Below are positions 34,130 through 50,808 of a stretch of 64,000 nucleotides of DNA, piece by piece. Every line of letters begins with the position of its first letter. Within the stretch, counting starts at the first letter, position 1. Below the pieces are notes generated by a model. That model was given only the letters and a program-made list of their open reading frames with translations, was not told the origin of the DNA and did not search any database. Source of the DNA: an uncultured Caldilineaceae bacterium (GTDB lineage: Bacteria; Chloroflexota; Anaerolineae; Caldilineales; Caldilineaceae). Where the stretch lies: positions 316 to 64,315 of the forward strand of contig CAZLMM010000024.1 of NCBI GenBank assembly GCA_964560495.1, given 5' to 3'. The position numbers were made by a program, and so were the translations under genes.

Positions 34130-35512
34130 TCACGAACGCAGTGGTTGAATGAAACGCCCGCTGCCCGGTTCGGCCACGATCTGGCCAGCGTCGAACACCA
34201 CTTGTCCGTTGACAAGGGTTGTGCGCACAACGCCGCGCTGGCTGCGACCGTGATAGAGGCGAGCGATCTCTTTGGCCTTGGTGAACCAACGATTGGCGTC
34301 GATGACGCCGTGTGGCCGCGGGTCATAGATCGTCAGATCGGCGATAGCGCCCACCCGCAGCACGCCCCTCTCTGGGAAAAGGCCAAAGAGCTGCGCCGGC
34401 TGTGTGGAGAGCAAGCGCACTGCCATATCGAGGGAGAATCGTTCTGTCAATGCTTCGGTCATCACGCTGGGCAGGAGCGCCTCTACGCCCGGCGCGCCGA
34501 TGGCGCCCTGCCAGATGTCAGCGACGCCTCGTTCCTTTTCGGCAAGGGTGAAGGGGCTGTGGTCGGTGGTGATGGCGCGTAGCGACCCATCCATCAGACC
34601 GGCCCACAGGGCTGCCTGGTCGGTCTCGCTGCGCAGCGGCGGCTTGATCATGGCAAAAGGTCCCAGGCGATCCATGTCCGGCGCTGTGAAGTATAGATAG
34701 TGTGGGCAGGTTTCACCGGTCATGGGCAGCCCAGCGGCTTGCGCTCCTTGTAGAGTCTGAAGCGCAGCCGCGCAGGAGACATGGGCAATATGCACGTGAG
34801 TCCTGACTGCCGTACACATGACCGCCAACTGGGCCACGCTCATTGCCTCCACCACCGGGGGGCGGCTGGCAACAAAGGCCGCGGGATCAGTGCGCCCCGT
34901 TGCTTTGATGCGCCCCTCGAAGAGTTGGATCAGCCGCTCGTTTTCGGCATGACATGAAAGCAGCCGACCGGTCTCTTTGACCAGTTCCAACGCACGGTAA
35001 ATCTCGTCCTCTTGGTCAAGGCAAAGCCCTAAGAATTCGTCTTCGCGCCCTTTTTGGATGGCATGGGTGAAAATCTTGAAACCGCACGCCCCGGCGTCGG
35101 CCATGCCCAACACTTCGTCCCGGTCCAACAGACCCGGCGCGCCATAGAGACCGAAGTTGACATAGCTTTCCTTGCGTCCCAATGCCTTACGCATCTCGAA
35201 GACGTCGACGCGCGCACAGCAGGGCACGCTGATGGGCATTTCCAACACGGTGGTGACGCCGCCGGCCGCGGCCGCCTGGGTTTCGGTAATGAAGGTGCCG
35301 CGCTCGGGGTGGCCGGGCGCGCGCACATGGAAGTGAATGTCTATGACACCCGGCATGACCAGACAGCCTTCTGCGTTTAGCTCGCGACGGGCTGCGGGCA
35401 ATGCGCCGGGCTGTGCGATCACGGCGATGCGATCTCCCTCGACGCCCAGGTCAGCCGGGAGCTGACCCTGTTCCGTGATCAATACGCCGCCTTCGATGGC
35501 CAGATCTAGCAT
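34130..35512 (-). CDS. cyclic amidohydrolase (dihydroorotase/allantoinase/hydantoinase family)
   Basis: ORF 34130..35662 trimmed to ATG 35512 ('MLDLAIEGG'). HxH metal motif 'DIHFHV'; about 460 aa. Confidence 0.8.
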   Translation of the reverse strand: MLDLAIEGGVLITEQGQLPADLGVEGDRIAVIAQPGALPAARRELNAEGCLVMPGVIDIHFHVRAPGHPERGTFITETQAAAAGGVTTVLEMPISVPCCARVDVFEMRKALGRKESYVNFGLYGAPGLLDRDEVLGMADAGACGFKIFTHAIQKGREDEFLGLCLDQEDEIYRALELVKETGRLLSCHAENERLIQLFEGRIKATGRTDPAAFVASRPPVVEAMSVAQLAVMCTAVRTHVHIAHVSCAAALQTLQGAQAAGLPMTGETCPHYLYFTAPDMDRLGPFAMIKPPLRSETDQAALWAGLMDGSLRAITTDHSPFTLAEKERGVADIWQGAIGAPGVEALLPSVMTEALTERFSLDMAVRLLSTQPAQLFGLFPERGVLRVGAIADLTIYDPRPHGVIDANRWFTKAKEIARLYHGRSQRGVVRTTLVNGQVVFDAGQIVAEPGSGRFIQPLRS

Positions 35513-35525: not shown

Positions 35526-36689
35526 TCACAACAGCGCCTCCTCTGCAAAGCGCGCGAGGATGCACCGGGTCGTTTCCAGTTCTTCGATGACCACATATTC
35601 ATCCGCCGCGTGGGCGACCTCGTAGCTACCCGGGCCAAAGACCACCATTCCTTCCCTGGCAACGTTGGTCAGGTGCTTGGCGTCGCTGCCGGGCAGATAG
35701 CCGACAGGTTCAGGCGGCGCGCCGGTTTCGTCTGCGCAGAGGCGGACGAAACGCCGAAACAGCGCGCTTTCGACGTCGTTCTGAAACCAGTTGCTGATCA
35801 GGAAATCGCCCACGCGATAGGTGCGCTCCGGGTCAGCCGCCTGGCGCGCTGCGACGATCTCTTGCAGCTCCGCAATGACCGCTTGTGGGTCTTCGCCGGG
35901 CAGCATGCGCCGGTCCACGTAAATCGTGCACGCGTCGGCCACCACATTGACGCCCACCCCGCCGCTGATGACGCCCACATTGATGCTGGCCGGCCCAAGG
36001 AGTGGATGGGGGCGACGCTCCAGAACCTCAGACTGATAGCGTTCCAGGTCGAGAATCAGCCGCGCCATGCCATTGATGGCGTTGCGCCCGCGCCAGGGAT
36101 TGGTGGCGTGGGCGGTGCAACCTGCCACATGAAAGGCAGCGCGCAACACGCCCTTGTGCGCCGTCGCTGCCCGGTTGTGGGTCTGTTCGCCGACGACGAC
36201 AAAGTCGCACGCTGGGACGTAGCCGTTCTCCACCAGCCACTTCGTCCCCAACTGGCCGCCCACTTCTTCTTCTGCAGCGCAGACCACCACCAGGCGACCC
36301 TTGAGCCTGTCAGACTGCGCGCCGATTGCTGCGGCAGCGTGCAGCATGGCGGCTAGAGGCGCTTTGTCATCCACGCTGCCCAGGCCATAGACTTTCCCAT
36401 CGACCAAAGCGCCGGCAAAAGGATCGACGCTCCAGCGCGCATTCTGGCCCAGGGGCACGGTGTCGATGTGGGCGTGATAGAGCAGGGATAGCGAGTCTGC
36501 TTCACCCAACACACCGACGACGCTCCAGGCGCGATCATCGGGCGCAACCAGCGTGGTCGTAAAGCCGGCCCGCTGTAAGTAGTCGGCGCAGAACCCGGCA
36601 ATCGCGCGACAGTCGCCGGGCGGATTGGGAGAAGGGATACGGATCAGTTGCTGAAGCAACGCGACCAGTTCGTTGGCGGACAGGCTCAT
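35526..36689 (-). CDS. M20 family deacylase (ArgE/DapE/carbamoylase-like)
   Basis: ORF 35526..36953 trimmed to ATG 36689 ('MSLSANELVALL'), giving an ATGA overlap with the upstream gene. Motifs 'YHAHIDTVP', 'GLGSVDDKAP' and 'AAEEEVGG'. Confidence 0.8.
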   Translation of the reverse strand: MSLSANELVALLQQLIRIPSPNPPGDCRAIAGFCADYLQRAGFTTTLVAPDDRAWSVVGVLGEADSLSLLYHAHIDTVPLGQNARWSVDPFAGALVDGKVYGLGSVDDKAPLAAMLHAAAAIGAQSDRLKGRLVVVCAAEEEVGGQLGTKWLVENGYVPACDFVVVGEQTHNRAATAHKGVLRAAFHVAGCTAHATNPWRGRNAINGMARLILDLERYQSEVLERRPHPLLGPASINVGVISGGVGVNVVADACTIYVDRRMLPGEDPQAVIAELQEIVAARQAADPERTYRVGDFLISNWFQNDVESALFRRFVRLCADETGAPPEPVGYLPGSDAKHLTNVAREGMVVFGPGSYEVAHAADEYVVIEELETTRCILARFAEEALL

Positions 36690-37687
36690 GATGGGATCAG
36701 GTTGTCCACTGTTTGTTCGATGACGCCGAAGAAGCAGCACCACTGTCCCTCGATCACCGATGGTCGCGAGCGCAATCCAAAGACGACACCGTCGCGCGGG
36801 GCGGTCAATTCGGCCAACACATCGCCATAGAGATTGTAAATGACGCCCAGTGGCGTTCCCTGGGCGACAGGAGTCTCGAAGGGCAGGTCGCGATTGCCCA
36901 CAAAGATGCCCGTCGCCGGCGCCAAAAGCGCAATCTGATAGCCCTGCCGCCACGCCGGCGCATAGGCAGGCGTTCCTTCGATCATCTTATAGTGGCGCAT
37001 GACATTGAGGTAGCTGGCGGCCAGGTCCTCGGCCACAACATGGAAATCGCCTGTCAGCGAGCGGCAGTTGCCGCCCAGTTCCACTGTAATGCCGCCCTTG
37101 CCCAGAGACGCTATTATGGAGCTGGGGTTGCCGCCGCCCACTGGGGAACGAAAGACCAGGGACCACTGGGGCCCCATGGCCGCAGCCAATTCCAGGCTGA
37201 CCGGGTTGTCCGACGCAAAGATCATGTGCGCCAGGTAGGAATGTTCGCCGCCCGAATGGACAGCGATTTGCAGGTCGCAGTTCTCTTTCATAGCCAGCCA
37301 GTGAGCATAGGCGATGCGTTCGGTGGGATAGCCTTCGGCCTTGCCGGGATAGATGCGGTTCATATCATAGCTGAAGGTGTCCAGCGGGTCGCCGCGCGTG
37401 CCGGCCGTGAAAGCGTTCACGTTCATGGCGGGCACTGCCACGATTGTTCCGCGTAGGCGTTGCGGGTCGATCTGCTTGAGCGCCAGAAAGATCGAAAAAG
37501 CGCCTTCCGGCTCATCGCCGTGGGTGGCGCCGTTGATCCAGAGCCGCGGCCCTTCTTCCACCCCCCGTGCAACGATAATGGGCATGGCGTAGGGGCGCCC
37601 GGCCATATCAACGCCCGCCTGAATGACGCCCCGTTTCATCTCGCCCGGCATGACCGTCGTCACACCAATTGTCATTGCTTCTGTCAT
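36686..37687 (-). CDS. succinylglutamate desuccinylase/aspartoacylase family deacylase
   Basis: 333-aa ORF with zinc-site-like 'NGATHGDEPEG'. Family assignment is from recall. Confidence 0.75.
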   Translation of the reverse strand: MTEAMTIGVTTVMPGEMKRGVIQAGVDMAGRPYAMPIIVARGVEEGPRLWINGATHGDEPEGAFSIFLALKQIDPQRLRGTIVAVPAMNVNAFTAGTRGDPLDTFSYDMNRIYPGKAEGYPTERIAYAHWLAMKENCDLQIAVHSGGEHSYLAHMIFASDNPVSLELAAAMGPQWSLVFRSPVGGGNPSSIIASLGKGGITVELGGNCRSLTGDFHVVAEDLAASYLNVMRHYKMIEGTPAYAPAWRQGYQIALLAPATGIFVGNRDLPFETPVAQGTPLGVIYNLYGDVLAELTAPRDGVVFGLRSRPSVIEGQWCCFFGVIEQTVDNLIPS

Positions 37688-37696: not shown

Positions 37697-38890
37697 CTAT
37701 CGATGTCGCGCCAGCACGCCAGCCATCCGTTCCAGCGCCAACGCCAGTTGATCCTCTGGCTGCAATACGCTGATGCGCAGCCAATCCACCCACTTTTCGC
37801 CAAAGGCGGTGCCCGGAAAGATGAGCACGTGCCCCTCTTTGAGAAGGAGATAAGCCAGCTCAAAGGCAGGAATGCCGCTGGAAGCAGCGTTGGTGTAGAC
37901 AAAGAATGCACCCTGCGGCTCGCCATAGGTGAAGCCCAGATCGGTCAGTCCGCTCTTCATCAGCGCAATGCGACGCCGGTAGATTTCCCGATACTCAGCC
38001 ACCACGTCCTGCGGACCGGTTGCCGCGGCCAGGGCTGCGTACTGGCTCACAGCCGACAGGGGGCCGGTCGTGGCAGCTTTCACCGCTGTCATTGCCGCAA
38101 TGAAGTCCGCCGGCGCGGCCGCATAGCCAACGCGCCAGCCGGTCATGGCGTAGGTCTTGGAAAAACCGCCCAACGTAACTGTGCGCTCAAACATCCCCGG
38201 CAAACTGGCGAAGCTCAATTGCTCGGCAGGGGGATAGATGTATTTCTCGTAGATTTCATCGCTGATGACGATCAAGTTATGGCGCTGTGCGATCTCGGCA
38301 ATTGCTCGCAGATTGGCCGGACTGACCACCGCCGAGGTGGGGTTGCTGGGCGAGATGAGCAGGATGGCCTTGGTCTTGGGCGTGATGGCCGCCTCCACCT
38401 CTGCGGGCCGCAAGTCGAAGTTGTCTTCCGGGTAGGTGGGCACAAGCGTCATCTTGGCCCCGGCCTGATGGATCGCCTCGTCGTAGCTCGTGTAGCGCGG
38501 GTCAGGCGCCAGGATTTCGTCGCCCGGGTCGAGAAGCGTCTGCATGAGCAGGTAGAGCGCCTCCTGCCCGCCATCGGTGATCAGAACATCGTCGCGTGTC
38601 AGCGGGATGTTGTTCTGGTCGTGCAGGTTGGCCGCCACTGCTTCGCGCAGAGCTGGCAGGCCAGCCGTAGGAACGGGCAGATCAGCCCGTCCATCCAGTA
38701 TGGCCGCGCGAGCTGCAGCAATGACATGTTCTGGCGTGTTGAGGTCTGGGTCGCCGCGGCCCAGAGTAATCGCGTCGGGAATTTGCCCCGCCAGTTCCAT
38801 GAGAGCATAGCGCAGTTTGACGCCGTCAGCGGCGACTGCGCGCAGTTCGTCTGGCGTCACAATCTGACCTGGTGCGACTTTCTGGCTCAT
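37697..38890 (-). CDS. class I/II pyridoxal-phosphate aminotransferase
   Basis: Motifs 'SPSNPT', 'SDEIYEK' and PLP-lysine 'GGFSKTYAMTGWRVGY'. Confidence 0.85.
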   Translation of the reverse strand: MSQKVAPGQIVTPDELRAVAADGVKLRYALMELAGQIPDAITLGRGDPDLNTPEHVIAAARAAILDGRADLPVPTAGLPALREAVAANLHDQNNIPLTRDDVLITDGGQEALYLLMQTLLDPGDEILAPDPRYTSYDEAIHQAGAKMTLVPTYPEDNFDLRPAEVEAAITPKTKAILLISPSNPTSAVVSPANLRAIAEIAQRHNLIVISDEIYEKYIYPPAEQLSFASLPGMFERTVTLGGFSKTYAMTGWRVGYAAAPADFIAAMTAVKAATTGPLSAVSQYAALAAATGPQDVVAEYREIYRRRIALMKSGLTDLGFTYGEPQGAFFVYTNAASSGIPAFELAYLLLKEGHVLIFPGTAFGEKWVDWLRISVLQPEDQLALALERMAGVLARHR

Positions 38891-38893: not shown

Positions 38894-39982
38894 CTAACGT
38901 CCTTTCACCTGGCGCAGCCCAACCTCGAGCGCCTCCAGCGCATCGGCCAGCGAGCCGGAAGGCGCGGCAATGCGGAGCATGCCGGGCTGGCCGAGCAACG
39001 CGCCGTCGCCCACCAGGACGCCGGCAGAGCGGCACGCACCAGCCGCAGCGCTGCTGTCACCCACCTTGGCCGCAACGAAGGCCACCGTGTCCGGTTCCAG
39101 GTAAGCGATCTCAAGGCGGTCGAGGAGCGCAAGGATCGCTTCCATACGCTCGGCGTATTGGGCTTCGATCTCGCCTTCATCCACTTCGACGGCAGCCGCC
39201 AACGCCGCATACTGGCTGGCAGCCGCTGTGCAGATGGTGATGGATTGCTTGAGATCGCGCACCGGCGTAAAGACGCGCTTTGCGCCGGCGACCCAACTGA
39301 CGCGCCACGCCCCCAAGCCCGGCGCCTCGGCAAAGCTGCCGATAGTCAGTGTGCGCTCCGCCATCCCCGGCAGCGATGCAAACCGCACGAAGGGCGCCTC
39401 CGGCCGCACAGGGCCGACGCTCTCGTCTGCGATGACGGCAAGACCCGCGGCGGCAACCCACTCAGCCAGACGCTGCAAAAGCCCTGGCTGATAAACCTGA
39501 CCCGTTAGCGGGTGTGGATTGCTCACGATCAGCAGACCGCCGTGGATCTGCGGCAGTTCGCCCGCCAGATCGAGCACGTGTACGCGCGCGTTGGCGAACT
39601 CCAACCCGGCGCGATAGACCGTGGGCGCCGGCGCCGGCAGATAGACGTCCTGCCCAGCAGCCAGGCCGCGCACGGCTACATAACGCGCCTCGGCCACTCC
39701 GCCGCAGATGGTCGCCAGATTCTCGTCCATCGCCGCCCCAGCCGCAGTCAGGGATGACGCCACCGCACGGCAGAGCGGCGCGATGCCTGGGCGTCGCGTG
39801 TAATGGTCGCACAGGTGGCGTTCGATGGCGTCGATGGTTGACTCGCGCAGCGCGGGCGAGGTGCTGCTGGCAAGAAACTCTTCGCTCAGGTCGATCACAT
39901 CATCGTGCACCGGCGGTGGGACAGGCAGACTACGAGCGCGCTGCGCCGCCATGCCGCCGAGAATGGAAGAACCCATGGTCAT
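38894..39982 (-). CDS. aminotransferase-fold paralogue lacking the PLP-binding lysine (predicted non-catalytic or repurposed)
   Basis: 362-aa ORF collinear with class-I aminotransferases ('SNPHPLTG', 'ADESVG', 'GAWRVSW'). The position of the S-x-S-K lysine reads 'GSFAEAPGLGAWRV', with Glu codon gag at 39326..39328. Confidence 0.7.
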   Translation of the reverse strand: MTMGSSILGGMAAQRARSLPVPPPVHDDVIDLSEEFLASSTSPALRESTIDAIERHLCDHYTRRPGIAPLCRAVASSLTAAGAAMDENLATICGGVAEARYVAVRGLAAGQDVYLPAPAPTVYRAGLEFANARVHVLDLAGELPQIHGGLLIVSNPHPLTGQVYQPGLLQRLAEWVAAAGLAVIADESVGPVRPEAPFVRFASLPGMAERTLTIGSFAEAPGLGAWRVSWVAGAKRVFTPVRDLKQSITICTAAASQYAALAAAVEVDEGEIEAQYAERMEAILALLDRLEIAYLEPDTVAFVAAKVGDSSAAAGACRSAGVLVGDGALLGQPGMLRIAAPSGSLADALEALEVGLRQVKGR

Positions 39983-40437
39983 ACGCCCTGCGGTCGGTCG
40001 CCGCTTTCGCCTTCCTTGTAGACCTGCATGAACTCGATCTCGATACCGCTGACTTCATCCTGCAAGAAGGCCACCCAACCTTCGGGGTGGACGTGGCTGC
40101 CCGTCACCTTGCAGGCGGAGCACTCTTTGAGCGTGGCGCCATTTGCCTGAGCTTCCGTCAGCGCGGCGTCAATATCTTCCACTGCAAAGCAAATGTGGTG
40201 CAGTCCCTCATGGCCGCGCTGGGCGATCCATGAGGCGAAGCGGCCATCTGCATCCATGGATTGCGTCACCTGAAATTCCACGCCGCCCAGGTCGAAGACT
40301 GCGGCGCGATTGCGACTCTTGTTGAAGTCCTTGACCTGGACGCTTTCCGGCGCGCCCAATAGCCGCTTATAGGCGGCCAACGACGCATCCACGTCGCGCA
40401 CAGCAAAAGTCATGTGTTTGATCTGGGTTACTTTCAT
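39979..40437 (-). CDS. VOC/glyoxalase-fold protein (methylmalonyl-CoA epimerase-like)
   Basis: 152-aa ORF with 'HMTFAVRDVD' and 'GLHHICFAVEDID', the paired beta-alpha-beta-beta-beta module signatures. 4-nt overlaps with both neighbouring genes. Confidence 0.7.
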   Translation of the reverse strand: MKVTQIKHMTFAVRDVDASLAAYKRLLGAPESVQVKDFNKSRNRAAVFDLGGVEFQVTQSMDADGRFASWIAQRGHEGLHHICFAVEDIDAALTEAQANGATLKECSACKVTGSHVHPEGWVAFLQDEVSGIEIEFMQVYKEGESGDRPQGV

Positions 40438-41258
40438 GTGACCATCCTTCTGCTCATTTCATCTACGTAAAGCGTCACTTTATGGGGCGCAAACTCGAAA
40501 TCGTACCCTTCCGCAGCGATCGTATCTGCCACTGGGCCGGCGTCGAAGCGCAGACCCGAAAAGCGGCTGGGCGGCTGCAACGCCAGCCAGACGAAGGCCG
40601 ACGCCAACGTGAGCGGATCGGTCCAGCGGGCGCGCTCTGCGTCGCTCAACCCGTTCTCGTCGGCCCGGCGGATGGACGTGGGCTTGATGGGCTTACCCGG
40701 CCCCATGGTGTTGACGGCGATGTTGTGCGCTGCCGCTTCCAGCGCCAGCGCCTTGGTGAAGCCTTCGACGCCATGTTTGGCTGCACAATACGAGACTTCA
40801 TTGACAAAGCCGCGCATGCTGGATCCGCTGGCGATGGCCACGCAATGGCCGCCGCCTTGACGCACCATGTGCGGCCATGCGGCCCACACTCCGTGATAGA
40901 CGCCTGTCAGGTTGACAGCGATCATCTTGCTCCAGAAATCCGGCGTGTGTTGGGCGAAGGGGACGAGCGGCATGATCGCTGCATTGTTGACCACCATGTC
41001 CAGCCGTCCCCATTGGGCTGTGATGGCGGCCGCAGCGTTTTGCATCGCCTGAGCGTCGCTCACGTCGACGACCAGGCTCAGGACTGGGCCGCCGTCGCTG
41101 CGAATTTCGTCCCCGGTCAAAGCCAGCTCGTGCGCGTCGATATCCGTGATGCAGACGCGCGCTCCGGCGCGGGCCAGCCCGCGAGCGATGCCTGCGCCAA
41201 AGCCCCGTCCCGCTCCGGTGACCCACACCACTCGATTTTCCAGCAGGTTCGTCGCCAT
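40434..41258 (-). CDS. SDR family oxidoreductase
   Basis: TGxxxGxG motif 'VTGAGRGFGAGIA', 'NNAA', and catalytic YxxxK in 'YCAAK'. Confidence 0.85.
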   Translation of the reverse strand: MATNLLENRVVWVTGAGRGFGAGIARGLARAGARVCITDIDAHELALTGDEIRSDGGPVLSLVVDVSDAQAMQNAAAAITAQWGRLDMVVNNAAIMPLVPFAQHTPDFWSKMIAVNLTGVYHGVWAAWPHMVRQGGGHCVAIASGSSMRGFVNEVSYCAAKHGVEGFTKALALEAAAHNIAVNTMGPGKPIKPTSIRRADENGLSDAERARWTDPLTLASAFVWLALQPPSRFSGLRFDAGPVADTIAAEGYDFEFAPHKVTLYVDEMSRRMVT

Positions 41259-41275
41259 AGAGAGGGCCGAGAGAG

Positions 41276-41315: not shown

Positions 41316-41324
41316 TAAGGCTTC

Positions 41325-42197
41325 CTAATTCACCTGTAGCAGTTCTTTGATGTTTGCGCCGGCTGTCATCACTGGTTGAATCACCGGCGCCTTGCTCGTC
41401 ATGAGCACGGCGATGCCCGGCCCATAGCCGCTGCGGAAACTGCCGCCTTGACAGACCACGCCGATCGCCATCGCGCCCGCCAGAAAACCGTGGCCATAAC
41501 GACTATCCCAATCAGCCACGGCCACGAGGTCGCCAAAGCGCAGGTCGGCCAAACCGGCCGCGGCGAAGCGCTCTGGGTCGGATGTTTGCAAATTGAGCGC
41601 GCCATTCTCGCTGCCCAAACCGGCCCCTGCCCCCGCCAATACACTCGGCGCGACGCCCCGCACCGGTACAACCAGCTTGCCGTCGCCGCTCACATCCGGG
41701 TTGAGCGCATCCAGCAACGCAGGCGAACAGCTCTTGAACTGGATATCGGGAAACTCAGCGAGCTGTAAACCCACGCCGTGGGCCTGCACCTGCACCTTGT
41801 CGCCCGGCGCCATCTTTTCCAGCGCCGCATCTTCGAAGTGGCAGATGACGTGCTCGGCAAAGCGTCCGCTCTTGCCGATGACAACGCCGATTGCGCCGCT
41901 TGCTGCGCCGCTGACCACCCGCGCTCTATTGCCCAGGCAGGCAAAGACGCTCAAGGCTGCGTTGGCCGGGCCGCTGGTTTTGATGGAGACCCCCGGCTGG
42001 ATCAGCTCCGCCGCCCAACCCAGCGCATGGTCGCCCAGTTTTACATTGTAGACCAGTCCGCCATAGGCCGGCACGACCAGCGGCTCGCCGTCAGCCGACA
42101 CCAGATAGGGACTGGCGGGTAGACCCGGCATGGATGGATTGGCGATCTCACCCAGAACGGAGATTTTTACAAGTTGTGATACGTTTGTTGTCAGCAT
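41325..42197 (-). CDS. uncharacterised protein, DUF4438-like (paralogue 1)
   Basis: 290-aa ORF collinear with the adjacent 286-aa ORF. Shared blocks: 'TN..QLVK', 'VYN..(L/V)G..A.GWA', 'PGVSI', 'GDLVAV.D.D.R.G.GF' and 'GANI'. The DUF4438 name is from memory of that family's length and N-terminus, not from a search. Confidence 0.65.
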   Translation of the reverse strand: MLTTNVSQLVKISVLGEIANPSMPGLPASPYLVSADGEPLVVPAYGGLVYNVKLGDHALGWAAELIQPGVSIKTSGPANAALSVFACLGNRARVVSGAASGAIGVVIGKSGRFAEHVICHFEDAALEKMAPGDKVQVQAHGVGLQLAEFPDIQFKSCSPALLDALNPDVSGDGKLVVPVRGVAPSVLAGAGAGLGSENGALNLQTSDPERFAAAGLADLRFGDLVAVADWDSRYGHGFLAGAMAIGVVCQGGSFRSGYGPGIAVLMTSKAPVIQPVMTAGANIKELLQVN

Positions 42198-42305
42198 GAT
42201 TGGCTCTCGAACATATTCATTTGGGTTTTGAGGTCTTGGGGAGACGGGTTTGGGAATTGCCTATTCCCAAAAACCTCATTGCCTCAAGACACCACTGCCC
42301 GGTGC

Positions 42306-43166
42306 TTACACCATCCCCAACATCCTGGCGATATTGGCCCCTGGGTCAATTACCGGTTCAATCTCGCCGTTGGCGCAGACGAGCATGTCCTGACAACCGG
42401 GGCCATGACCTGTCATGACCGAGTCGCCGTGCATGATCAAGCCGATGGTCACGCCCCCGGGCTTGAAGCCGCGGCCAAAGCGGTGGTCGGTATCCATGAC
42501 AGCCACCAGATCGCCCAACTTCAGGTTGTCGATGCCGTGCTCAGCCAGCGCCGCCCGGTCGCCGGTCATCAAGTCCTGATCGACAAACTCCGGCGTCAAC
42601 TCGGCGCCGCTGCCCATAATGTGGGCTGGGATGGTCGCCACAACCGGGACTTGCAGCCTGCCCGCCGCCGATCTGCCCAATCCCCACGCCTCGATCAGGT
42701 TGGGGCCGGCCTTCTTGACCAACACGCCTGGAAAGTCGAGCAGTTTCATGCCGCGCCCTTCAGTTTTGATCACGATGCGGTCGCCGACGCAGAGCTGTTC
42801 CAGTACATCAGGCGCAAAATCCACCAACAATCGGGCATGTTCTCCGGTGACGACGCCGCGTGCGCCTATGGCAGGCCCGCTGGCGACGAAGGCTTCGTTG
42901 CCAACGCAAGTCAGGTAGTGCATTGCGTGATCCACTGCGTCGTCAGGATGGGCGATAGAGACGCCCGGCTCCACGTGGTCGCCCGCCCAGCCATACGCGG
43001 GAGCGCCGACGCGGGCGTTGTAGACGATCCCTGCCATGCCAATGAGCACCCGTCCGACGCCTTCGGTGTCTGGGCGATAAGGCGAGCGATCCAGCGTCGG
43101 CGCGCTGATGAAACCGGAGACCGCCATTTTCACAAGTTGGTCACGATTCGTCCGCAACATGGGCAT
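42306..43166 (-). CDS. uncharacterised protein, DUF4438-like (paralogue 2)
   Basis: 286-aa ORF, full-length paralogue of 41325..42197. See that entry for the shared blocks. Confidence 0.65.
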   Translation of the reverse strand: MPMLRTNRDQLVKMAVSGFISAPTLDRSPYRPDTEGVGRVLIGMAGIVYNARVGAPAYGWAGDHVEPGVSIAHPDDAVDHAMHYLTCVGNEAFVASGPAIGARGVVTGEHARLLVDFAPDVLEQLCVGDRIVIKTEGRGMKLLDFPGVLVKKAGPNLIEAWGLGRSAAGRLQVPVVATIPAHIMGSGAELTPEFVDQDLMTGDRAALAEHGIDNLKLGDLVAVMDTDHRFGRGFKPGGVTIGLIMHGDSVMTGHGPGCQDMLVCANGEIEPVIDPGANIARMLGMV

Positions 43167-43193: not shown

Positions 43194-44210
43194 TCATATC
43201 ACCCGGTGGGCCAGCGAACCATTCTCTGCAAAGCGCCGGACATTGGCCAGAACATCGCTCATCTGCCGATCCCGTGCGCCGCCCGTGCCGCCGCCAATGT
43301 GGGGCGTCAGAATCACGTTGTCGCACTGCAAAAGTGGATGATCGAAGGGGATCGGCTCGTAGAGAAAGACATCCAGCCCGGCGCCGGCAATCTGACGGCG
43401 TTGCAGCGCGGTCACGAGCGCGTCTTCTTCGATGACGCCGCCGCGGCAAATGTTGACCAGGAAGGCGCTGGGCTTCATCAGCGCCAGCTCGCGCGCTCCG
43501 ATCATCTTCTCGGTCTCTGGCGTCAACGGCGTGGCAAGCAGCACGAAGTCCGACGCCCGCAGGAGATCGTCTTTTTCGGCAAAGACAACGCCTTCCGCTG
43601 TCTCTGCCGTGGAAGGCAGCCTCGTGCGCTTGTTGTAAAGGACCGACATGCCAAAGGCGCGCGCTCGCCGCGCCGTCTCTGCTCCGATCTCGCCGAAGCC
43701 GATGACGCCCAGAGTGCGCCCCACCACTTCGAGCATTTGCGATTGCATGTTCATCCACTGAAACTTGTGCTTGCGCTGTTCAGTGCGGATCGGCTCGACG
43801 CCCAGACTGCGGTACGCGCCAGTCACGGTGGCTACGTGACCGCGTATCAGGTTCTTGCTCAGGGCCAGGATCAAGGTCATGGCCAGCTCGGCCACGGCGA
43901 TGCAGCCGTGGAGCGGCATCGTTGCGACAGCCACGCCGCGGGCGCGCGCAGCGTCAAGATCGACGCCGTCGGGTCGTGCGCCGTAGCGCTGGATCAGCTT
44001 GAGGCGAGGCGAAGCGGCGATCAGTTCAGCATTGATGGCTGTGCTCTGCGTCACGATGGCGTCGGCTTTAGGAAGCAGATGGGCCATTGCTGCGGGCGAG
44101 TCGTCGGCTGGCGCAATCAGACCCAGTGATTGCGCTGGTTGCAGTTTGGTAATCCACTCGAAGTCGGTTGGCGTTTTGGGCTCGGCAAATAGGACGGTGA
44201 AGGTTTCCAT
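43194..44210 (-). CDS. D-isomer-specific 2-hydroxyacid dehydrogenase
   Basis: NAD motif 'GVIGFGEIG', plus 'NICRGGVIEEDAL', 'GAGLDVF' and 'ILTPHIGG'. Confidence 0.85.
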   Translation of the reverse strand: METFTVLFAEPKTPTDFEWITKLQPAQSLGLIAPADDSPAAMAHLLPKADAIVTQSTAINAELIAASPRLKLIQRYGARPDGVDLDAARARGVAVATMPLHGCIAVAELAMTLILALSKNLIRGHVATVTGAYRSLGVEPIRTEQRKHKFQWMNMQSQMLEVVGRTLGVIGFGEIGAETARRARAFGMSVLYNKRTRLPSTAETAEGVVFAEKDDLLRASDFVLLATPLTPETEKMIGARELALMKPSAFLVNICRGGVIEEDALVTALQRRQIAGAGLDVFLYEPIPFDHPLLQCDNVILTPHIGGGTGGARDRQMSDVLANVRRFAENGSLAHRVI

Positions 44211-44215: not shown

Positions 44216-44917
44216 CTATACAATCTGGGCAGAGCTTTCCTGCCCGTCTTCTGGCGACCAGTTGGCCAACAGGTGATGAAGCGACTCGGCGATGTGGTCG
44301 CTGAGGATCTGCTTGGCCTGCGTCTTGTCACGCGCCTTGAGCGCCGTAATCAAGGTGGGATGGCTGCCCACGACCTCATCGAGAAATGTGTAAATCTTGT
44401 GGCGGGTGCGCAGACAGCGCCGTAGCCCGACTTCCAGGTTGAGCCACAATTTGAGCGCCAGCTCATGATTCGCCTGTTCGAGCAGATATTCATGAAAACG
44501 AAGGTCGATCTCGACCAAACGCGTAAGATCGCCGCTGCGCGCAGCTTGGCGCATCTCCTCCACGATTTCATCGAGATAGTCGATGTCGGCGTCAGACATG
44601 CGCTCGATGCTGTGGTCGAGAGCCAGGAGCTCGAGCGCCGTGCGCACCGAATATAGCTCCTCCACATACTTGCGGGTCAGCGGCGTGACGATGACGCCTT
44701 TGTAGGGCACGCTCTGGAGCAGTCCCTCTTGTTCCAACTGACCCAGCGCTTCACGGATTGGTCCACGGCTCACCCCAAGTTGTTCGGCGATCTGCGCCTG
44801 ATTGAACTCTGCGCCGGGCGCCAGAGCGCCGTCGATGATCAGCTGGCGGAGCACGCCGGTGACATTTTCCTTGAGCGTGCGCGGCTCAATTCGCTGCAAG
44901 TTCTCCAGATACGTCAC
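44216..44917 (-). CDS. GntR family transcriptional regulator, FadR/FCD subfamily
   Basis: N-terminal wHTH 'QIAEQLGVSRGPIREALGQLEQEGLL' and a helical FCD-like C-terminal domain. First gene of the minus-strand operon. Confidence 0.85.
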   Translation of the reverse strand: MTYLENLQRIEPRTLKENVTGVLRQLIIDGALAPGAEFNQAQIAEQLGVSRGPIREALGQLEQEGLLQSVPYKGVIVTPLTRKYVEELYSVRTALELLALDHSIERMSDADIDYLDEIVEEMRQAARSGDLTRLVEIDLRFHEYLLEQANHELALKLWLNLEVGLRRCLRTRHKIYTFLDEVVGSHPTLITALKARDKTQAKQILSDHIAESLHHLLANWSPEDGQESSAQIV

Positions 44918-44976
44918 TGTTCCTCACCCTCTGCGCCTCATCGCACATTTTTTGGGAAGTTGCTTGCAAATCATGA

Positions 44977-45005: not shown

Positions 45006-45015
45006 CCAAAATTAG

Positions 45016-45184: not shown

Positions 45185-46777
45185 ATGAAGTACAAGATAT
45201 CCTGGATATTGGTCGTCTTGATCGTTGGATTGGTCATTGCGGGCTGCGTTCAGCCCGCGCCAGGCGCAAGCGCGCCGGCGGCGGAGGCCGAGACCAGCGC
45301 AGAGGAAGCCGGGGCCACTGGAGGAGGCGTTTTGACCGTAGCGCGGTCGGCTGACGCCAATCTGTGGGATCCAAAGTTTACGAATGACAATAATTCCCTG
45401 TGGGCGCAGACTCAGATATTCGCCACATTGATGCAGAATTCCCCAGATGGCAAAGAGTTGCTCCCCTGGCTGGCGGAATCCTATGAGTTCAACGATGACG
45501 CCACCGAAGTGACCTTCAAGCTGCACGCGGACGCCAAGTTCTGCGACGGCAGCCCGATCACCGCCGAGGATGTGAAATGGTCGTTGGATCGCGGCAAGGA
45601 AGCAGACTCCGCCGTCTCCTGGCAATTCTTCTCCAACCCAGAAATCGAGGTCATCGACGATCTGACGGTCAAGTTCACCCTGGATCGCCCGAATGTGGCT
45701 TTCCCCCACTATCTGACCCTGTGGGGCATGTCGATCCTTTCCAAGAAATACGCCGAAGAAGTGGGCATCGAAGCCCTTGCCGAGAAGCCGCTGGGCTCTG
45801 GTCCCTTCTGCCTGGATCAATGGGACAAAGGGCAGTTGATCGTGCTCAAACCCAACCCCGGCTATTGGGGGGATGATGGCTCGAAGGTGGATGAGGTGCA
45901 CTTGCGCGTGGTACAAGATGACAATGCCCGCGTTCTCCAGGTGCAGACCGGTGAGGTCGATATCGCCCTGGACATCCCCTATGCACAGGTGGAGGCGCTG
46001 CGTGGGGCGGAGGGCGTCGAGGTGATGGTTGATACGCTTTACGGTACGGCAGCAATCCCGCTCAATCAGCGCACGGTGCCCCAATTTGCCGACAAGAAGA
46101 TTCGCCAGGCTATGGCCCACGTCATCGACCGTCAGGCGCTTGTGGACGCCGTGTTGTTGGGGCAAGGCGAGGTAGCCAAGTCACCCTTCTACGGGCCGGC
46201 GATCCTCTACTGGACAGGTGACTTCGAGATACCTTTCGACCTGGAAAAGGCCAAACAGCTCATGGCCGAATCGAGCGATCCCGATGGCTTCTCCGCCGAG
46301 TTGCTCATTCCCTCCGGCGACACGATGGCGCAGCAGACCGCTGTCATCCTCAAGGATCAGCTGGCGCAGATCGGCATCGACATCACCATCACGCCGGTCG
46401 AGTCTGGCACATGGTGGGAGATGTGGTCTGGCGGCACCTATCAGATGCTCTACAAACTGGGCACCAACGACGTGATTGACCCGGCGGAGAATCTCCCCTT
46501 CGACTTCTGGTCCATCGAGGAGGGCGGCTCGGATGCAGCCTTCACCGGCTTCTATAACGCCCGCATCGTGGAGCTGAGCCAGATGGCCGAGCGCGAGTTC
46601 GACTCGGCCAAGCGCGCCGAGCTCTACTACGAACTGCAGCAGATCGCCATGGACGAGACGCCGCAATTGTGGCTCTTCCATCCCTCCAACCGCTGGGCGA
46701 CGCGCGACAATATCGAAGGTTTCTCGGTTTTCCCCACCGGCTTGCACCGCTTCTGGTTGGCGTCGAAGGCGCAGTGA
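45185..46777 (+). CDS. ABC transporter substrate-binding protein, family 5, lipoprotein
   Basis: ORF 45047..46777 trimmed to ATG 45185 ('MKYKISWILVVLIVGLVIAGC', lipobox-like 'IAGC'). About 530 aa, DppA/OppA-like. Confidence 0.85.
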   Translation: MKYKISWILVVLIVGLVIAGCVQPAPGASAPAAEAETSAEEAGATGGGVLTVARSADANLWDPKFTNDNNSLWAQTQIFATLMQNSPDGKELLPWLAESYEFNDDATEVTFKLHADAKFCDGSPITAEDVKWSLDRGKEADSAVSWQFFSNPEIEVIDDLTVKFTLDRPNVAFPHYLTLWGMSILSKKYAEEVGIEALAEKPLGSGPFCLDQWDKGQLIVLKPNPGYWGDDGSKVDEVHLRVVQDDNARVLQVQTGEVDIALDIPYAQVEALRGAEGVEVMVDTLYGTAAIPLNQRTVPQFADKKIRQAMAHVIDRQALVDAVLLGQGEVAKSPFYGPAILYWTGDFEIPFDLEKAKQLMAESSDPDGFSAELLIPSGDTMAQQTAVILKDQLAQIGIDITITPVESGTWWEMWSGGTYQMLYKLGTNDVIDPAENLPFDFWSIEEGGSDAAFTGFYNARIVELSQMAEREFDSAKRAELYYELQQIAMDETPQLWLFHPSNRWATRDNIEGFSVFPTGLHRFWLASKAQ

Positions 46778-46811
46778 CGACGGAGTAACGGCTGTGTGAG
46801 GCAGTGAGGTA

Positions 46812-46858
46812 GTAAGGGAATGAGGTGATGGGGGTCGCCCATCACCTCATTCCCTTAC
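46812..46858 (+). other. intercistronic stem-loop (21-bp perfect stem) between SBP and permease genes
   Basis: gtaagggaatgaggtgatggg (46812..46832) pairs with cccatcacctcattcccttac (46838..46858), with a 5-nt loop. Confidence 0.8.
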
Positions 46859-46896
46859 CGCGGCGCTATTCCCGTTCGCGACCAAAGAAACGACAC

Positions 46897-47838
46897 GTGG
46901 ACATCCTGATTTTTCTGCGCAAGCGACTGATCCACATGATCCCGGTGCTCTTTGGGATTCTGGTGGTCGTCTTTCTCATGATCCGGCTGATCCCCGGCGA
47001 CCCGGCGCGCATCATGTTGGGCACCCACGCCACGCCAGAGAGCGTGGCTGCGCTGCGCGCCGAGCTGGGATTGGATGCGCCGCTGTGGCAGCAATTTCTG
47101 GTGTTCATGGTCAACGTCTTGCAGGGCGACCTGGGCATATCGCTCGTCTACCGTCGCCCGGTGATCAACGTGATCTTCGAGCGGCTGCCGCCCACCCTGT
47201 TCCTCATTGCCTATGCAGCGATTTTGTCCCTGCTCATCACCATTCCCCTGGCCCTGTGGGCTGCGCTGCGCCAGAACCGAGGGCCGGATCAAGCCGTGCG
47301 GGTCGGTTCCACACTGACCCTTTCCATGCCGAGCTTCTGGCTCGGTCTCAATCTGCTCATTCTCTTTGCCGTGCGTATCCCCCTTTTTCCCGTGGCTGGC
47401 TATGGCGACAGTTTCCTGGATCATCTCTGGCATCTCTTCCTGCCATCAGTGACCATCATGCTGCTTCTGGCGCCCATGTTGATCCGCAGTCTGCGCAGCG
47501 GGCTGATCGACGTGCTGAAAGCTCCCTATGTGGAGTTTGCCCGCGCGAAAGGCATCAGTGAGCGACGAGTGCTCCAGCGCCACGTGCTACGCAACGCCAT
47601 GATCTCGACTGTAACCATCCTGGGACTGAACATCGGCTGGTTGATCGGCGGCACAGTCGTTATCGAGACGGTCTTCACCATTGCCGGCATGGGGTCGCTT
47701 ATCGTCAGCTCCATCTACGCCCGCGACTATCCTGTCATCCAGGGTGTGACATTGGTCTTTGCGCTGCTGGTCATCTCCATCAACCTGGTGACGGACGTCG
47801 TCTACGCTCTACTGGATCCGAGGGTCAGCTATGATTGA
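46897..47838 (+). CDS. peptide-type ABC transporter permease (DppB-like)
   Basis: ORF 46825..47838 with preferred GTG at 46897 ('VDILIFLRKRLIHMIPVLFG' matches the usual DppB N-terminus). Upstream codons are encoded by the intercistronic hairpin. Confidence 0.8.
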   Translation: MDILIFLRKRLIHMIPVLFGILVVVFLMIRLIPGDPARIMLGTHATPESVAALRAELGLDAPLWQQFLVFMVNVLQGDLGISLVYRRPVINVIFERLPPTLFLIAYAAILSLLITIPLALWAALRQNRGPDQAVRVGSTLTLSMPSFWLGLNLLILFAVRIPLFPVAGYGDSFLDHLWHLFLPSVTIMLLLAPMLIRSLRSGLIDVLKAPYVEFARAKGISERRVLQRHVLRNAMISTVTILGLNIGWLIGGTVVIETVFTIAGMGSLIVSSIYARDYPVIQGVTLVFALLVISINLVTDVVYALLDPRVSYD

Positions 47839-48712
47839 CGCGCCTACAGCGAGCGAACGATCCGTGGACAGGCGGGAAGGCTGGTTGGCGCGCTGGGGTG
47901 CTCCGTCTTGGTTGCGACGCACATCCTTGATCTTTGGCGCGGCCGTTCTGCTGACAATCCTGGTCGCCAGTATCTTTGCTGGGCAGATCAGCCCACATGA
48001 CCCCATCGCTCAGAATTTGTCGAACACCCTGCGACCGCCCAGCACCGAACATCCCTTCGGCACCGACAACTTCGGTCGCGATATCTTCAGCCGTGTGCTC
48101 CACGCTGCCAAGCTCGACTTGATGATCGGCGTGCTCTGCGTGCTCTTTCCCATGATCATCGGCGTGCTGCTCGGCTGTCTGGCAGGCTACCTGGGCGGCC
48201 ACACTGACACGGTGATCATGCGCACGGTGGACACCTTCACCGCTTTCCCATTCCTGGTGCTGGTGATCGCCATCATCGCCATCATGGGGCCGGGGCTGTA
48301 CAGCATGTTCGTCGCGCTGACGCTGGCGGGATGGAGCGCCTACACGCGCATCGTGCGTGGGGAAATCCTGGTGGTGAAACGAGCGGAATACATCCAGGCG
48401 GCGCGGGCGTTGGGCTATAGTCGATCGCGCATCATGTTTCGCCATGTGCTGCCCAATGTGGTCTCGCCGGCCGTCATTTTTGCCATGGCCGACATCGTAC
48501 TCGTGATCCTCTCCACCACTGCGTTGAGCTTCCTGGGCCTGGGCGTACAGCCTCCCACGCCTGAGTGGGGCAGCATGATCGCCGAAGGCCGCGTCTACAT
48601 GATGACCGCGTGGTGGCTGGTAACGCTGCCTGGCCTGGCAATCGTGGCCGTAGGTTTGGCGCTCAGCTTTTTTGGCGATGGCCTGGCCGATCTCTTGCGC
48701 ACCGAGGATTAG
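47831..48712 (+). CDS. peptide-type ABC transporter permease (DppC-like)
   Basis: 293-aa multi-TM ORF that overlaps the upstream permease gene by 8 nt. EAA-loop-like 'QAARALGYSRSRIMFRHVLPN'. Confidence 0.85.
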   Translation: MIDAPTASERSVDRREGWLARWGAPSWLRRTSLIFGAAVLLTILVASIFAGQISPHDPIAQNLSNTLRPPSTEHPFGTDNFGRDIFSRVLHAAKLDLMIGVLCVLFPMIIGVLLGCLAGYLGGHTDTVIMRTVDTFTAFPFLVLVIAIIAIMGPGLYSMFVALTLAGWSAYTRIVRGEILVVKRAEYIQAARALGYSRSRIMFRHVLPNVVSPAVIFAMADIVLVILSTTALSFLGLGVQPPTPEWGSMIAEGRVYMMTAWWLVTLPGLAIVAVGLALSFFGDGLADLLRTED

Positions 48713-48715
48713 CCG

Positions 48716-49698
48716 ATGGAGCCAATTCTGGAGGTGCGCGACCTGACTACGCAGATCGCAACCAAACGTGGGACGCTGACCGCGGTGGATGAAGTCAGTT
48801 TTTCGTTGCAGCGCGGCGAAATTCTCGGTATTGTGGGCGAAAGCGGCTGTGGTAAGAGCATGACCTGTCGCTCCATCCTCCAGCTCCTGCCTGCATCTGG
48901 CAGGGTGGTGGGGGGCGAGGCCATCTACGGCGGGCGCGACCTTCTGAAGCTCCCAATCAAGGAGTTCAACCAGTTGCGTGGTCGGGAGATTGCCATGATC
49001 TTCCAGGACCCCATGGCCGTGCTCAACCCAGTGCATCGGGTGGGAGACCAGCTGACCGAGGCCATGTTGGAGCATGGCATCGTGAAATCGAAGGGTGCAG
49101 CCAGGGCGCGCGCCATCGAGCTGCTGCGCAAAGTGGGCATTCCCGCGCCAGAAGAACGGCTGGCCGCATATCCCCATCACTTCAGCGGCGGCATGTGCCA
49201 GCGCCTGGTGATCGCCATTGCCTTGGCGTGCGAGCCGGCCATCATCCTGGCCGACGAACCGACGACTGCCCTGGATGTCACGATCCAGGATCAAATTTTG
49301 AAGCTGCTCATTGGTCTCCAACACGAGTTGGGTCTGAGCCTGCTGTTGGTGACCCATGACATGGGGGTTGTGGCGCAAACATGCCAGCGAGTGGCGGTGA
49401 TGTACGCCGGTAAGATCGTGGAGCTGGCGGACAAGGTTGCGCTCTTTACCGCGCCCCGTCATCCTTACACACGGGGCCTGCTCGACTGCGTGCCCCGCGT
49501 CCAGGAAGATGGCAACGTGCGTCCCTTGACGCCCATCCCAGGCGCGCCGCCTGATCTGGTGCAGCCGCCCAGCGGCTGCCGTTTTCACCCGCGCTGCCCA
49601 TTGGCCAGCGACGAGTGCAAACAGGGCGACTTCCCACTCCGCGAGGTGGCGCCAGGTCATTTGAGCGCGTGCATCAAGCATGAGCAGATGAGAACTGT

Positions 49699-49702
<4 letters not shown>
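48716..49702 (+). CDS. peptide-type ABC transporter ATP-binding protein (DppD/OppD-like)
   Basis: Walker A 'GESGCGKSM', signature 'FSGGMCQR', Walker B '[11 protein letters not shown]', and the C-terminal oligopeptide-type extension 'GCRFHPRCP'. Confidence 0.9.

Positions 49703-50808
<1,106 letters not shown>

Follow-up and report, generated by a model that had tools for sequence, protein, structure and literature searches.

The closest described relative of the two genes considered here is TM1086 of Thermotoga maritima (PDB 3DCL and 3N99), a member of the DUF4438 family, for which a crystal structure has been available since 2008 and which still lacks an assigned function. The searchable literature contains no discussion of it: DUF4438 and PF20999 are unmentioned, no function is given for TM1086, the match to PF14505 is the name of another family, and the other matches to TM1086 are strain names of C. 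elegans. TM1086 is a single-copy, canonical protein that evidently forms homo-oligomers in its crystals, the two PDB entries containing 5 and 30 chains. Here we describe two adjacent DUF4438 genes, DUF4438-A (in the following A) and DUF4438-B (B), on a stretch of 64,000 nucleotides (the window) from an uncultured Caldilineaceae bacterium (GenBank assembly GCA_964560495.1, contig CAZLMM010000024.1, positions 316 to 64,315). Both proteins share the full-length two-domain architecture of TM1086 and B shares all of its canonical motifs; the window differs, however, in that it encodes two diverged paralogues, one of them without the canonical polar motifs. The family is known but uncharacterised, and its conserved, subfunctionalised two-gene form and the gene module around it are undescribed as far as the searchable literature shows.

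Two-subunit lyases offer a second point of comparison. Sulfolactate sulfo-lyase (SuyAB) and L-tartrate dehydratase (TtdAB) work beside Ldh_2 or 2-hydroxyacid dehydrogenases and aminotransferases in the catabolism of hydroxy acids derived from amino acids, and the two subunits of each are not paralogues of each other, having different folds and cofactors. The likeness would lie in two adjacent genes for one enzyme and in a route from an amino acid via the 2-oxo acid and the 2-hydroxy acid to a lyase step, and it extends to the Ldh_2 partner of the DUF4438 pair in relatives of the window, which is closest to malate and sulfolactate dehydrogenases. However, A and B have no Pfam, NCBIfam or fold match to SuyAB or TtdAB, and the cluster showed no genes specific for sulfite or tartrate. 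Pairs of a catalytic and a pseudo-enzyme form a third comparison, as there too an adjacent duplicate lacks key residues yet is conserved. The operon itself contains an example in its aminotransferase tandem (37697-39982), although this protein family is unrelated to DUF4438; in both tandems, the pairing is known from the genes.

Two collinear paralogues in a fixed order

The original prediction had described open reading frames (ORFs) of 290 and 286 aa as end-to-end collinear paralogues of a DUF4438-like protein of unknown function. Both ORFs lie where it had placed them (Table 1), and BLASTP aligns A and B over 288 collinear residues with 38 % identity and 55 % positives (E 8e-60), a similarity far above chance. 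All the shared blocks that it had listed recur in this alignment (TN..QLVK, VYN..G..A.GWA....PGVSI, GDLVAV.D.D.R(Y/F)G.GF, G.GPG, and GANI). For B, a start at 43160 is more likely than one at 43166, because nearly all orthologues have 284 aa with the N-terminus MLRTN and because AAGGA precedes the second ATG by 5-6 nt. The same cluster is present on an identical 74-kb contig of the Joint Genome Institute (JGI; L001) and in an independent sequencing run.

The family label likewise stood up. Both Pfam domains, PF14505 and PF20999, are matched in order and over the full length by A (152.7 and 118.9 bits, E 6e-45 and 2e-34) and by B (144 and 144 bits, E 3e-42), the gathering cutoffs being 24.9 and 27 bits, respectively. 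Neither protein matches any Pfam family other than DUF4438 or any NCBIfam model, and the sole significant structural relative is the uncharacterised TM1086, which is closest to both: A reaches E 1e-56 over residues 3-287 in a sequence search, and B is 43-44 % identical. The fold comparison was made on a model of B, with A placed by its sequence. This AlphaFold2 model (predicted local distance difference score, pLDDT, 89; predicted TM-score, pTM, 0.89) superposes on TM1086 (3DCL) with a TM-score of 0.88-0.90 and E 2e-32 in a Foldseek search of the PDB, in which all further matches have E >0.1 and are generic small beta-barrels, for example, the F1-ATPase crown domain and KOW/SH3-like ribosomal proteins. 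As TM1086 alone was returned, an assignment of function from the fold was rejected. A characterised enzyme family to which the proteins might belong was thus looked for by Pfam, NCBIfam, and Foldseek, and none was found. With 873 clusters at 50 % identity among 1.84 billion representatives the family is rare, and a plasmid collection contained no DUF4438 match.

Such a fold invites the alternative that DUF4438 is no enzyme at all, but a small-molecule-binding, scaffold or cage-like assembly that organises or regulates the adjacent dehydrogenase and aminotransferase. The small SH3/KOW-like beta-barrels without an enzyme match would suit this role, as would the adjacent dehydrogenases, which overall belong to five different superfamilies, as expected for a generic partner. 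An asymmetric unit of 30 chains and more than 1 MDa in TM1086 crystals (PMC2661377) would agree with a very large assembly; how TM1086 assembles in solution, however, is undocumented in the searchable literature. Moreover, the conserved polar residues (D, H, E, H, H, C, and N) go beyond structural glycines and are typical of catalysis or metal binding, and their correlated loss in one paralogue, set out below, mimics catalytic/pseudo-enzyme pairs. Taken together, we regard a non-enzymatic role as decidedly improbable.

How far the pair is kept together was followed in a genome scan with one genome per species, which gave at least 590 confirmed relatives; the loci analysed are the best 80, ranked by similarity to A. 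The search patterns came from a narrower alignment, the family-wide alignment being too diverse for patterns, and the ORFs of related loci are crude calls from six-frame translation. Both paralogues are present in 77 of the 80 loci, with the second DUF4438 gene directly upstream of the A-like gene and on the same strand; the order is B then A in 77/77 paired loci, and no orphan was seen. The paired hosts encompass several orders of Chloroflexota, Deinococcota (Trueperaceae), Actinomycetota, Acidobacteriota, Gemmatimonadota, and many Alphaproteobacteria, among them the cultured Devosia spp., Aureimonas jatrophae, Rhizobium straminoryzae, Pelagibacterium lentulum, and several Rhodobacterales, as well as marine single-cell genomes. 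The three unpaired loci (Thermoflexus and metagenome-assembled genomes of Bathyarchaeia and Eubacteriaceae) hold single-copy, canonical-type genes in unrelated contexts. Of 66 evaluable pairs, 31 show a 4-bp overlap between the stop codon of B and the start codon of A, and in 49 the two lie at most 4 nt apart. The suggestion of an old duplication maintained as a pair is therefore strongly supported: in the 77 of 80 loci, which span at least six phyla, the paralogues are conserved together, and each is under its own strong purifying selection.

Asymmetric conservation and its recurrence in other clades

The two paralogues are not conserved in the same manner. In 76 genome pairs, the mean identity within type is 58 % for A and 60 % for B, as compared to a mean of 38 % (range 34-47 %) between A and B of one genome. 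Columns that are at least 90 % conserved number 82 in A, 92 in B, and 15 in the whole family, with reciprocal fixed differences between A and B. Near-invariant across the family are glycines together with N (TN), D (GD, three times), P (EPG), C-x-G-N, H (GHGPG), and N (AN). Although the original prediction had recognised no catalytic motif, a set of canonical family motifs does exist (GDHxEPG, KHGG, H(G/S/T)xx....GHGPG, and CxGN), which B retains and A has lost for the most part. Thus, B keeps GDHVEPGVSI, CVGN, and HGDS..GHGPG, preserves the His of KHGG within EHA, and carries an invariant Glu in GSGAEL. In B numbering, the motif residues are D61, H62, E64, C85, N88, H108, H244, and H252. By contrast, A fails three of the four motifs (AELIQPGVS, KSGR, and CQGGS..GYGPG in their places) and keeps CLGN alone; CxGN and the glycine scaffolding are common to both. 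The counterpart of GDHxEPG in A orthologues is (A/G)(D/E)x(I)x-P, that is, AELIQP in the window and D-C-I-H-P in most others, and (Q)xxS..GYGPG stands in place of H(G/S/T)xx....GHGPG. A has, moreover, invariants of its own across phyla, namely KSGR, the Ser/His in DSRYxHG (as in DSRYGHG), and the Arg and Tyr in R.GYGPG. That A is a decaying duplicate was rejected on account of its conservation across phyla (82 columns at 90 % or above). By these alignments, both genes are under strong but different constraints, and the pair as a unit is a variant rather than a canonical TM1086-type member.

These data may be read in two ways. In the reading that we favour, A and B form one complex, in which B supplies the site and A has been remodelled. 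Alternatively, A and B might be separate homo-oligomeric isozymes that carry out different successive or parallel steps of one pathway and are adjacent through co-regulation only. Strong conservation of both paralogues would be expected of isozymes, the invariants of A (KSGR, the H in DSRYGHG, and R/Y near GYGPG) could form a distinct active site, and TM1086 with its 5 and 30 chains evidently homo-oligomerises; the 108-nt spacer in the window, two DUF4438 copies split by two M24-like genes in locus L093, and three copies in L098 also fit looser association. On the other hand, isozymes would hardly account for the strict B-then-A order without orphans in 77/77 loci, for the dominance of 4-bp overlaps, or for the natural occurrence of a protein in which a degenerate unit is fused to a canonical one. 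Furthermore, residues that are near-invariant in single-copy members have been lost repeatedly and independently in one copy only, which is the signature of a partner that does not need a site of its own. Two separate isozymes thus seem unlikely.

Evidence for this repeated loss comes from other DUF4438 clades. All six single-copy members examined are canonical (TM1086, L077, L078, L080, P0246, and the signal-peptide form P0263), and multi-copy operons mostly combine canonical with degenerate copies. The canonical copy lies downstream and the degenerate one upstream (GDRAEP, CCGPS..GKGIG) in L084; in the related P0241, a natural fusion of 636 aa (L083 865-2775), the C-terminal unit is canonical and the N-terminal unit degenerate (GDRATF, ASVGN, ALGIG). 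In L093 the canonical copy is upstream and the degenerate copy downstream (GEDIEA, KQAG, GRGPG), with the two M24-like genes between them. Copy 1 of L101 is canonical (B-like) and copy 2 partly degenerate, whereas among the three tandem copies of L098 (7001-9765) copies 1 and 3 are canonical and copy 2 is degenerate (ADNLHP). Only in L095 is neither copy fully canonical, each being partly altered. The degenerate copies are hit at the same motif positions by different substitutions, and the losses are correlated: a copy that has lost one of the DH, KH, H, and GH positions tends to have lost the others as well, which suggests that these positions belong to one functional site.

A neighbour-joining tree (67 tips, 60 bootstraps) never unites the degenerate copies: they are monophyletic in 0/60 bootstraps, the smallest enclosing split taking in 56/67 tips. 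In 49/60, the copies of L093 pair as sisters, and the degenerate and canonical clades of L084/P0241 each appear in 60/60. On these groupings, the canonical-plus-degenerate arrangement arose at least three times. The operons of L084/P0241, L093, L095, L098, and L101 accordingly resemble the window in having 2-3 paralogues each, canonical and degenerate (except L095), and in adjoining a dehydrogenase, a peptide-type ATP-binding cassette (ABC) importer, and peptidases. They differ in their separate origins, in their substitutions, in the reversed order in L084, in other dehydrogenase families, and in that they are without the aminotransferase-VOC companions of the window.

Other clades also show where such proteins may act. 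Signal-peptide-like N-terminal leaders were observed on some DUF4438 proteins, namely the P0241 fusion and P0263 (L086 7001-8005), which suggests that some members act outside the cytoplasm; the neighbours of P0263 are an SBP_bac_3+SLT lytic-transglycosylase gene on one side and a VOC-like gene on the other. Peptide ABC importers and peptidases (M24-like, TldD/PmbA, M20/M28, M42, C69, and Asparaginase_2) accompany other DUF4438 clades, as do enzymes of 2-oxo/imino acids (RidA, RraA-like, the dihydrodipicolinate synthase (DHDPS) family, and a VOC-like protein). The dehydrogenases beside the pair there are 2-hydroxyacid dehydrogenases (2-HADH), beta-hydroxyacid dehydrogenases, zinc-dependent alcohol dehydrogenases, and GFO/MocA proteins. 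The L098 operon may serve as an example, with its peptide ABC importer, M20/M28 peptidases, isoaspartyl-peptidase-like protein, RidA, and DHDPS-family enzyme. Contexts of single-copy members (L077, L078, L080, P0246, P0281, and P0260) are heterogeneous or lie on contigs too short to inform.

Genomic neighbourhood, spacers, and repeats

In the window, the pair is part of a minus-strand operon with the order GntR/FCD regulator, 2-HADH, B, A, short-chain dehydrogenase/reductase (SDR), VOC protein, lysine-less aminotransferase paralogue, aminotransferase, AstE/AspA protein, M20 protein, and cyclic amidohydrolase (Table 1). The divergent operon with the ABC importer also encodes an isochorismatase-family hydrolase and another aminotransferase. 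Among the NCBIfam names for these neighbours, the M20 subfamily model alone passes its cutoff.

Table 1. Positions in the window of the DUF4438 pair, the neighbouring genes, and the two spacers that flank A.
Feature	Position	Strand	Basis
Cyclic amidohydrolase, allantoinase/hydantoinase/dihydroorotase-like	34130..35512	minus	Pfam Amidohydro_1; NCBIfam allantoinase 318 bits vs cutoff 358
M20 ArgE/DapE-family deacylase, 387 aa	35526..36689	minus	Pfam; NCBIfam TIGR01910 223 bits vs cutoff 217.6
AstE/AspA-family deacylase (succinylglutamate desuccinylase/aspartoacylase-like)	36686..37687	minus	Pfam AstE_AspA_cat, E 7e-27; weak DoeB similarity far below cutoff
Class-I (aspartate-type) aminotransferase	37697..38890	minus	Pfam E 5e-71; NCBIfam best aspartate/LL-diaminopimelate (LL-DAP)/GntC-type, all below cutoff
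Degenerate class-I aminotransferase paralogue	38894..39982	minus	Pfam Aminotran_1_2, only E 1e-18
VOC/glyoxalase-fold protein, methylmalonyl-CoA-epimerase-like	39979..40437	minus	Pfam Glyoxalase_4, E 1e-14; closest solved structures methylmalonyl-CoA epimerases
SDR, directly downstream of A	40434..41258	minus	Pfam adh_short, E 9e-51
A-SDR spacer hairpin	41276-41315 (spacer 41259-41324, 66 nt)	minus	Perfect 15-bp inverted repeat, 16-bp stem in fold, directly after A stop
DUF4438-A (remodelled paralogue)	41325..42197	minus	ORF, 290 aa; Pfam both domains
B-A spacer, 108 nt	42198..42305	minus	Sequence; in frame, three stop codons
DUF4438-B (canonical paralogue)	42306..43160	minus	ORF, 284 aa; alternative ATG 43166 gives 286 aa
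D-isomer-specific 2-HADH, directly upstream of B	43194..44210	minus	Pfam 2-Hacid_dh_C, E 1e-57; no NCBIfam equivalog
GntR/FCD-family regulator, first operon gene	44216..44917	minus	Pfam GntR, FCD
Peptide/opine/nickel-type ABC importer: SBP_bac_5, two permeases, two oligo_HPY ATPases	45185..50808	plus (divergent)	Gene calls and Pfam on identical contig L001

To compare these surroundings between genomes, 19 window proteins were used as queries for a neighbour search in the 80 loci, and percentages refer to the 50 paired loci whose 10-kb flanks are complete. The VOC protein is the most conserved companion of the pair (94 %, with 48-92 % identity). An oxidoreductase (Ldh_2, SDR or 2-HADH) and at least one amide hydrolase are each found in 98 % of these loci, the ABC importer in 96 %, an aminotransferase in 92 %, and the cyclic amidohydrolase in 86 %, while aminotransferase, VOC protein, and oxidoreductase occur jointly in 88 %. 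An AstE/AspA-family deacylase is present in 37-38 of the 80 loci. The Ldh_2 oxidoreductase is encoded in 63/80 loci, in most of them 0-13 nt after A. Its nearest matches are archaeal malate dehydrogenase and sulfolactate dehydrogenase, and the cyclic-imine reductase DpkA resembles it least. Caldilineae-like loci (L003-L010 and L014) are mostly without Ldh_2; there, an SDR gene mostly follows A after 0-19 nt, and in several a 2-HADH gene precedes B by 0-27 nt. SDR and 2-HADH in the place of Ldh_2 constitute an apparent non-orthologous replacement. The co-occurrence proposed originally, with aminotransferase or 2-HADH genes, consequently holds for the aminotransferase, which is a general companion, but not for 2-HADH, which is lineage-specific and, next to the pair, limited to the window's lineage and a few others (12-13/80), the general partners being Ldh_2 and the VOC protein. 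Other frequent companions are an M32 carboxypeptidase, an M24 PepQ-like protein, an amidohydrolase-type 'Xaa-Pro dipeptidase'-like protein, GFO/IDH/MocA oxidoreductases, and NAD-epimerase-family, polysaccharide-deacetylase-family, and ureidoglycolate-lyase-family proteins.

So many hydrolases around the pair suggest yet another possibility, namely that the imported peptide- or ureide-like compound, and not a later oxo or hydroxy acid, is hydrolysed at an amide bond by the DUF4438 complex itself, which would be a peptidase or amidase dependent on Cys/His or on a metal. The family offers a near-invariant Cys (CxGN) together with His and Asp/Asn, and its contexts are rich in M20, M24, M32, M42, C69, TldD/PmbA, Asparaginase_2, hydantoinases, and peptide ABC importers; signal-peptide forms adjoin a lytic transglycosylase, a C69 dipeptidase, and Amidohydro_3, and L080 adjoins peptidoglycan-binding and M23 genes. 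The tightest and most invariant neighbours, however, are dehydrogenases, the VOC protein, and the aminotransferase rather than peptidases, and known peptidase folds show no similarity to the B model. That the degenerate A keeps the Cys and loses the His residues is ambiguous in this respect. Overall, an amide hydrolase appears rather improbable to us.

Several observations on the neighbourhood stand on their own. In the degenerate aminotransferase paralogue, SFAEAP aligns with GFSKTY of the neighbouring aminotransferase, so that the lysine that binds pyridoxal phosphate is lacking; this paralogue is present in 14/80 loci, and the aminotransferase pair is a second tandem of an enzyme and a degenerate paralogue within the same operon. 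A conserved protein of 476 aa (L074 15503-16933), found in 40/80 loci, matches nothing in Pfam, NCBIfam or the PDB and is another uncharacterised component of the cluster; in alphaproteobacterial and Anaerolineae clusters, its gene lies between the second aminotransferase gene and that of the cyclic amidohydrolase. The divergent intergenic region contains sigma-70-like promoter matches (44977-45047) and, at 44964-44983, the palindrome TTGCAAATCATGATTGACAA, which overlaps a -35-like TTGACA in the GntR/ABC promoter region and is a candidate operator for the GntR/FCD regulator.

The 108-nt spacer between B and A had been noted before, together with a 9-bp hairpin, and the inverted repeat is exact (42249-42257 and 42263-42271). 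In the predicted mRNA fold, it caps a longer, imperfect stem, and the spacer as a whole is only marginally more stable than shuffled sequences (z -1.73, 10/200 shuffles fold as well). The hairpin is unique within the window, and searches for a T tract or terminator and for an Rfam match were negative. In the closest relatives, whose proteins are 83-84 % identical, the spacer measures 15-17 nt, and in other Caldilineae-like loci 55-283 nt. A conserved regulatory element, a terminator or a known RNA was rejected, as the hairpin lacks a T tract and an Rfam match, has a weak z, is missing in the nearest relatives, and is not a dispersed repeat; read-through or fusion of B and A in the window was rejected because of the three in-frame stops. 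The 108-nt spacer is thus a lineage-specific insertion peculiar to this species, and its hairpin might at most adjust how strongly B and A are expressed relative to each other in this lineage.

Far stronger is the hairpin between A and the SDR gene, with -31.4 kcal/mol, z -4.69, and 0/200 shuffles as stable; no U tract follows. The spacer that holds it comprises only 5-19 nt in the closest relatives. This hairpin might act in mRNA processing or stability and so set 2-HADH-B-A apart from the downstream genes. It may also belong to a short dispersed repeat family, since the motif ACAGGAT-N2-3-ACAGGAT has six matches in the window at up to 3 mismatches against 0.42 expected, including those at 26693, 41276-41315, 60346-60383, and 61499-61514.

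Further repeats lie elsewhere in the window. A perfect 21-bp inverted repeat with a 5-nt loop (46812-46858) is situated between the gene of the substrate-binding protein (SBP; end 46777) and that of the first permease (start 46897); the gap between SBP and permease genes is the classic position of an intercistronic stabiliser that raises binding-protein expression. A 79-nt intergenic repeat occurs at 5872-5950 and 18428-18506 (91 % identical), with a partial third copy at 32359-32388, and contains an internal inverted repeat in the manner of repetitive extragenic palindromic sequences or miniature inverted-repeat transposable elements (REP/MITE-like). In addition, an exact 31-nt hairpin sequence is duplicated at 12400-12430 and 12471-12501, 71 nt apart, a 14-nt tandem repeat (AATGGTCAATGGxT, ~5 copies) occupies 1134-1220 with a related copy at 22458-22488, and an inverted repeat of 26 bp with 92 % complementarity spans 27166-27226.

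Proposed role and significance

With moderate confidence, we propose that the pair encodes an obligate hetero-oligomeric enzyme, composed of a catalytic B and a remodelled A, that acts on an amino-acid-derived 2-oxo or 2-hydroxy acid. Such a complex of A and B would have evolved from a TM1086-like homo-oligomer. B would be the catalytic or ligand-binding subunit, with Asp-His-x-Glu (GDHVEPG), the His in EHA, His..Gly-His (HGDS..GHGPG), and Cys-x-Gly-Asn, and A a non-catalytic specificity, regulatory or structural partner that has kept the fold while its His/Asp/Glu positions were replaced. A hetero-oligomer had been raised as a possibility originally, and it has gained indirect support from the fixed order, the 4-bp overlaps, the reciprocal subunit-specific invariants, and a fusion elsewhere; from these we infer the physical heteromer. 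The P0241 fusion of a degenerate and a canonical unit speaks for contact in the Rosetta-stone sense, albeit in another clade.

The complex DUF4438-BA would presumably be one enzyme of a module together with the aminotransferase, the VOC protein, and the NAD(P) oxidoreductase. A peptide- or ureide-like nitrogen compound may be taken up by the peptide-type ABC importer and then dismantled by the amide hydrolases, and the aminotransferase could convert the unusual amino acid thus released into a 2-oxo acid. The DUF4438 complex would contribute a lyase- or hydrolase-type step without an organic cofactor, perhaps metal- or His-dependent, on the 2-oxo or 2-hydroxy acid, directly before or after the step of the adjacent dehydrogenase. 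Chemistry without cytosolic organic cofactors is favoured because some members carry signal-peptide-like leaders, and the complex is placed on a 2-oxo/2-hydroxy acid because aminotransferase, VOC protein, and a dehydrogenase of the malate/sulfolactate type (or its substitute) are constant neighbours. As to the substrate itself, ureides/hydantoins, hydroxyproline peptides, peptidoglycan stem peptides, cysteate/sulfolactate, phosphonoalanine, and ectoine were considered; some neighbours fit each of them, an equivalog-level match was found for none, and none was adopted.

Several points weigh against this proposal. The evidence for contact between A and B is genomic throughout, and since no characterised enzyme fold is matched, we infer from conserved residues and neighbours not only the catalytic role of B, the reaction class, and the nature of the substrate, but enzymatic activity as such. 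The invariant residues of A could equally mark a second, different active site. If TM1086, with its 5 and 30 chains per asymmetric unit, is built on pentamers, A and B could not simply alternate around a ring. Nor is translational coupling tight everywhere, as the window genes are 108 nt apart and the L093 copies are separated by two genes. Finally, many of the 80 loci are closely related Alphaproteobacteria, so that the percentages overstate the number of independent observations.

A more far-reaching version of the proposal is possible, though doubtful. DUF4438 might represent a new enzyme class on a unique fold, whose His/Asp/Cys site would carry out cofactor-free cleavage of C-N, C-S, C-P or C-O bonds, or an isomerisation, of an amino-acid-derived 2-oxo/2-hydroxy acid, and which would have passed repeatedly from a large homo-oligomer to a heteromer of an active and a remodelled subunit. 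On this view, an undescribed catabolic pathway would centre on the aminotransferase-VOC-BA-Ldh_2 module; it would degrade a common nitrogen compound derived from peptides, ureides or cell walls and be widespread among the Alphaproteobacteria of sea and soil as well as among Chloroflexota.

In any case, the question of function has become testable, given canonical motif residues that are kept in B and lost in A, a predicted two-subunit complex, named partner genes, and cultured hosts. The repeated, independent pairs of a canonical and a degenerate copy provide a clean natural example of homomer-to-heteromer transitions. If the module indeed corresponds to a real pathway, it would be present in abundant marine Alphaproteobacteria and would thus bear on the turnover of dissolved organic nitrogen.

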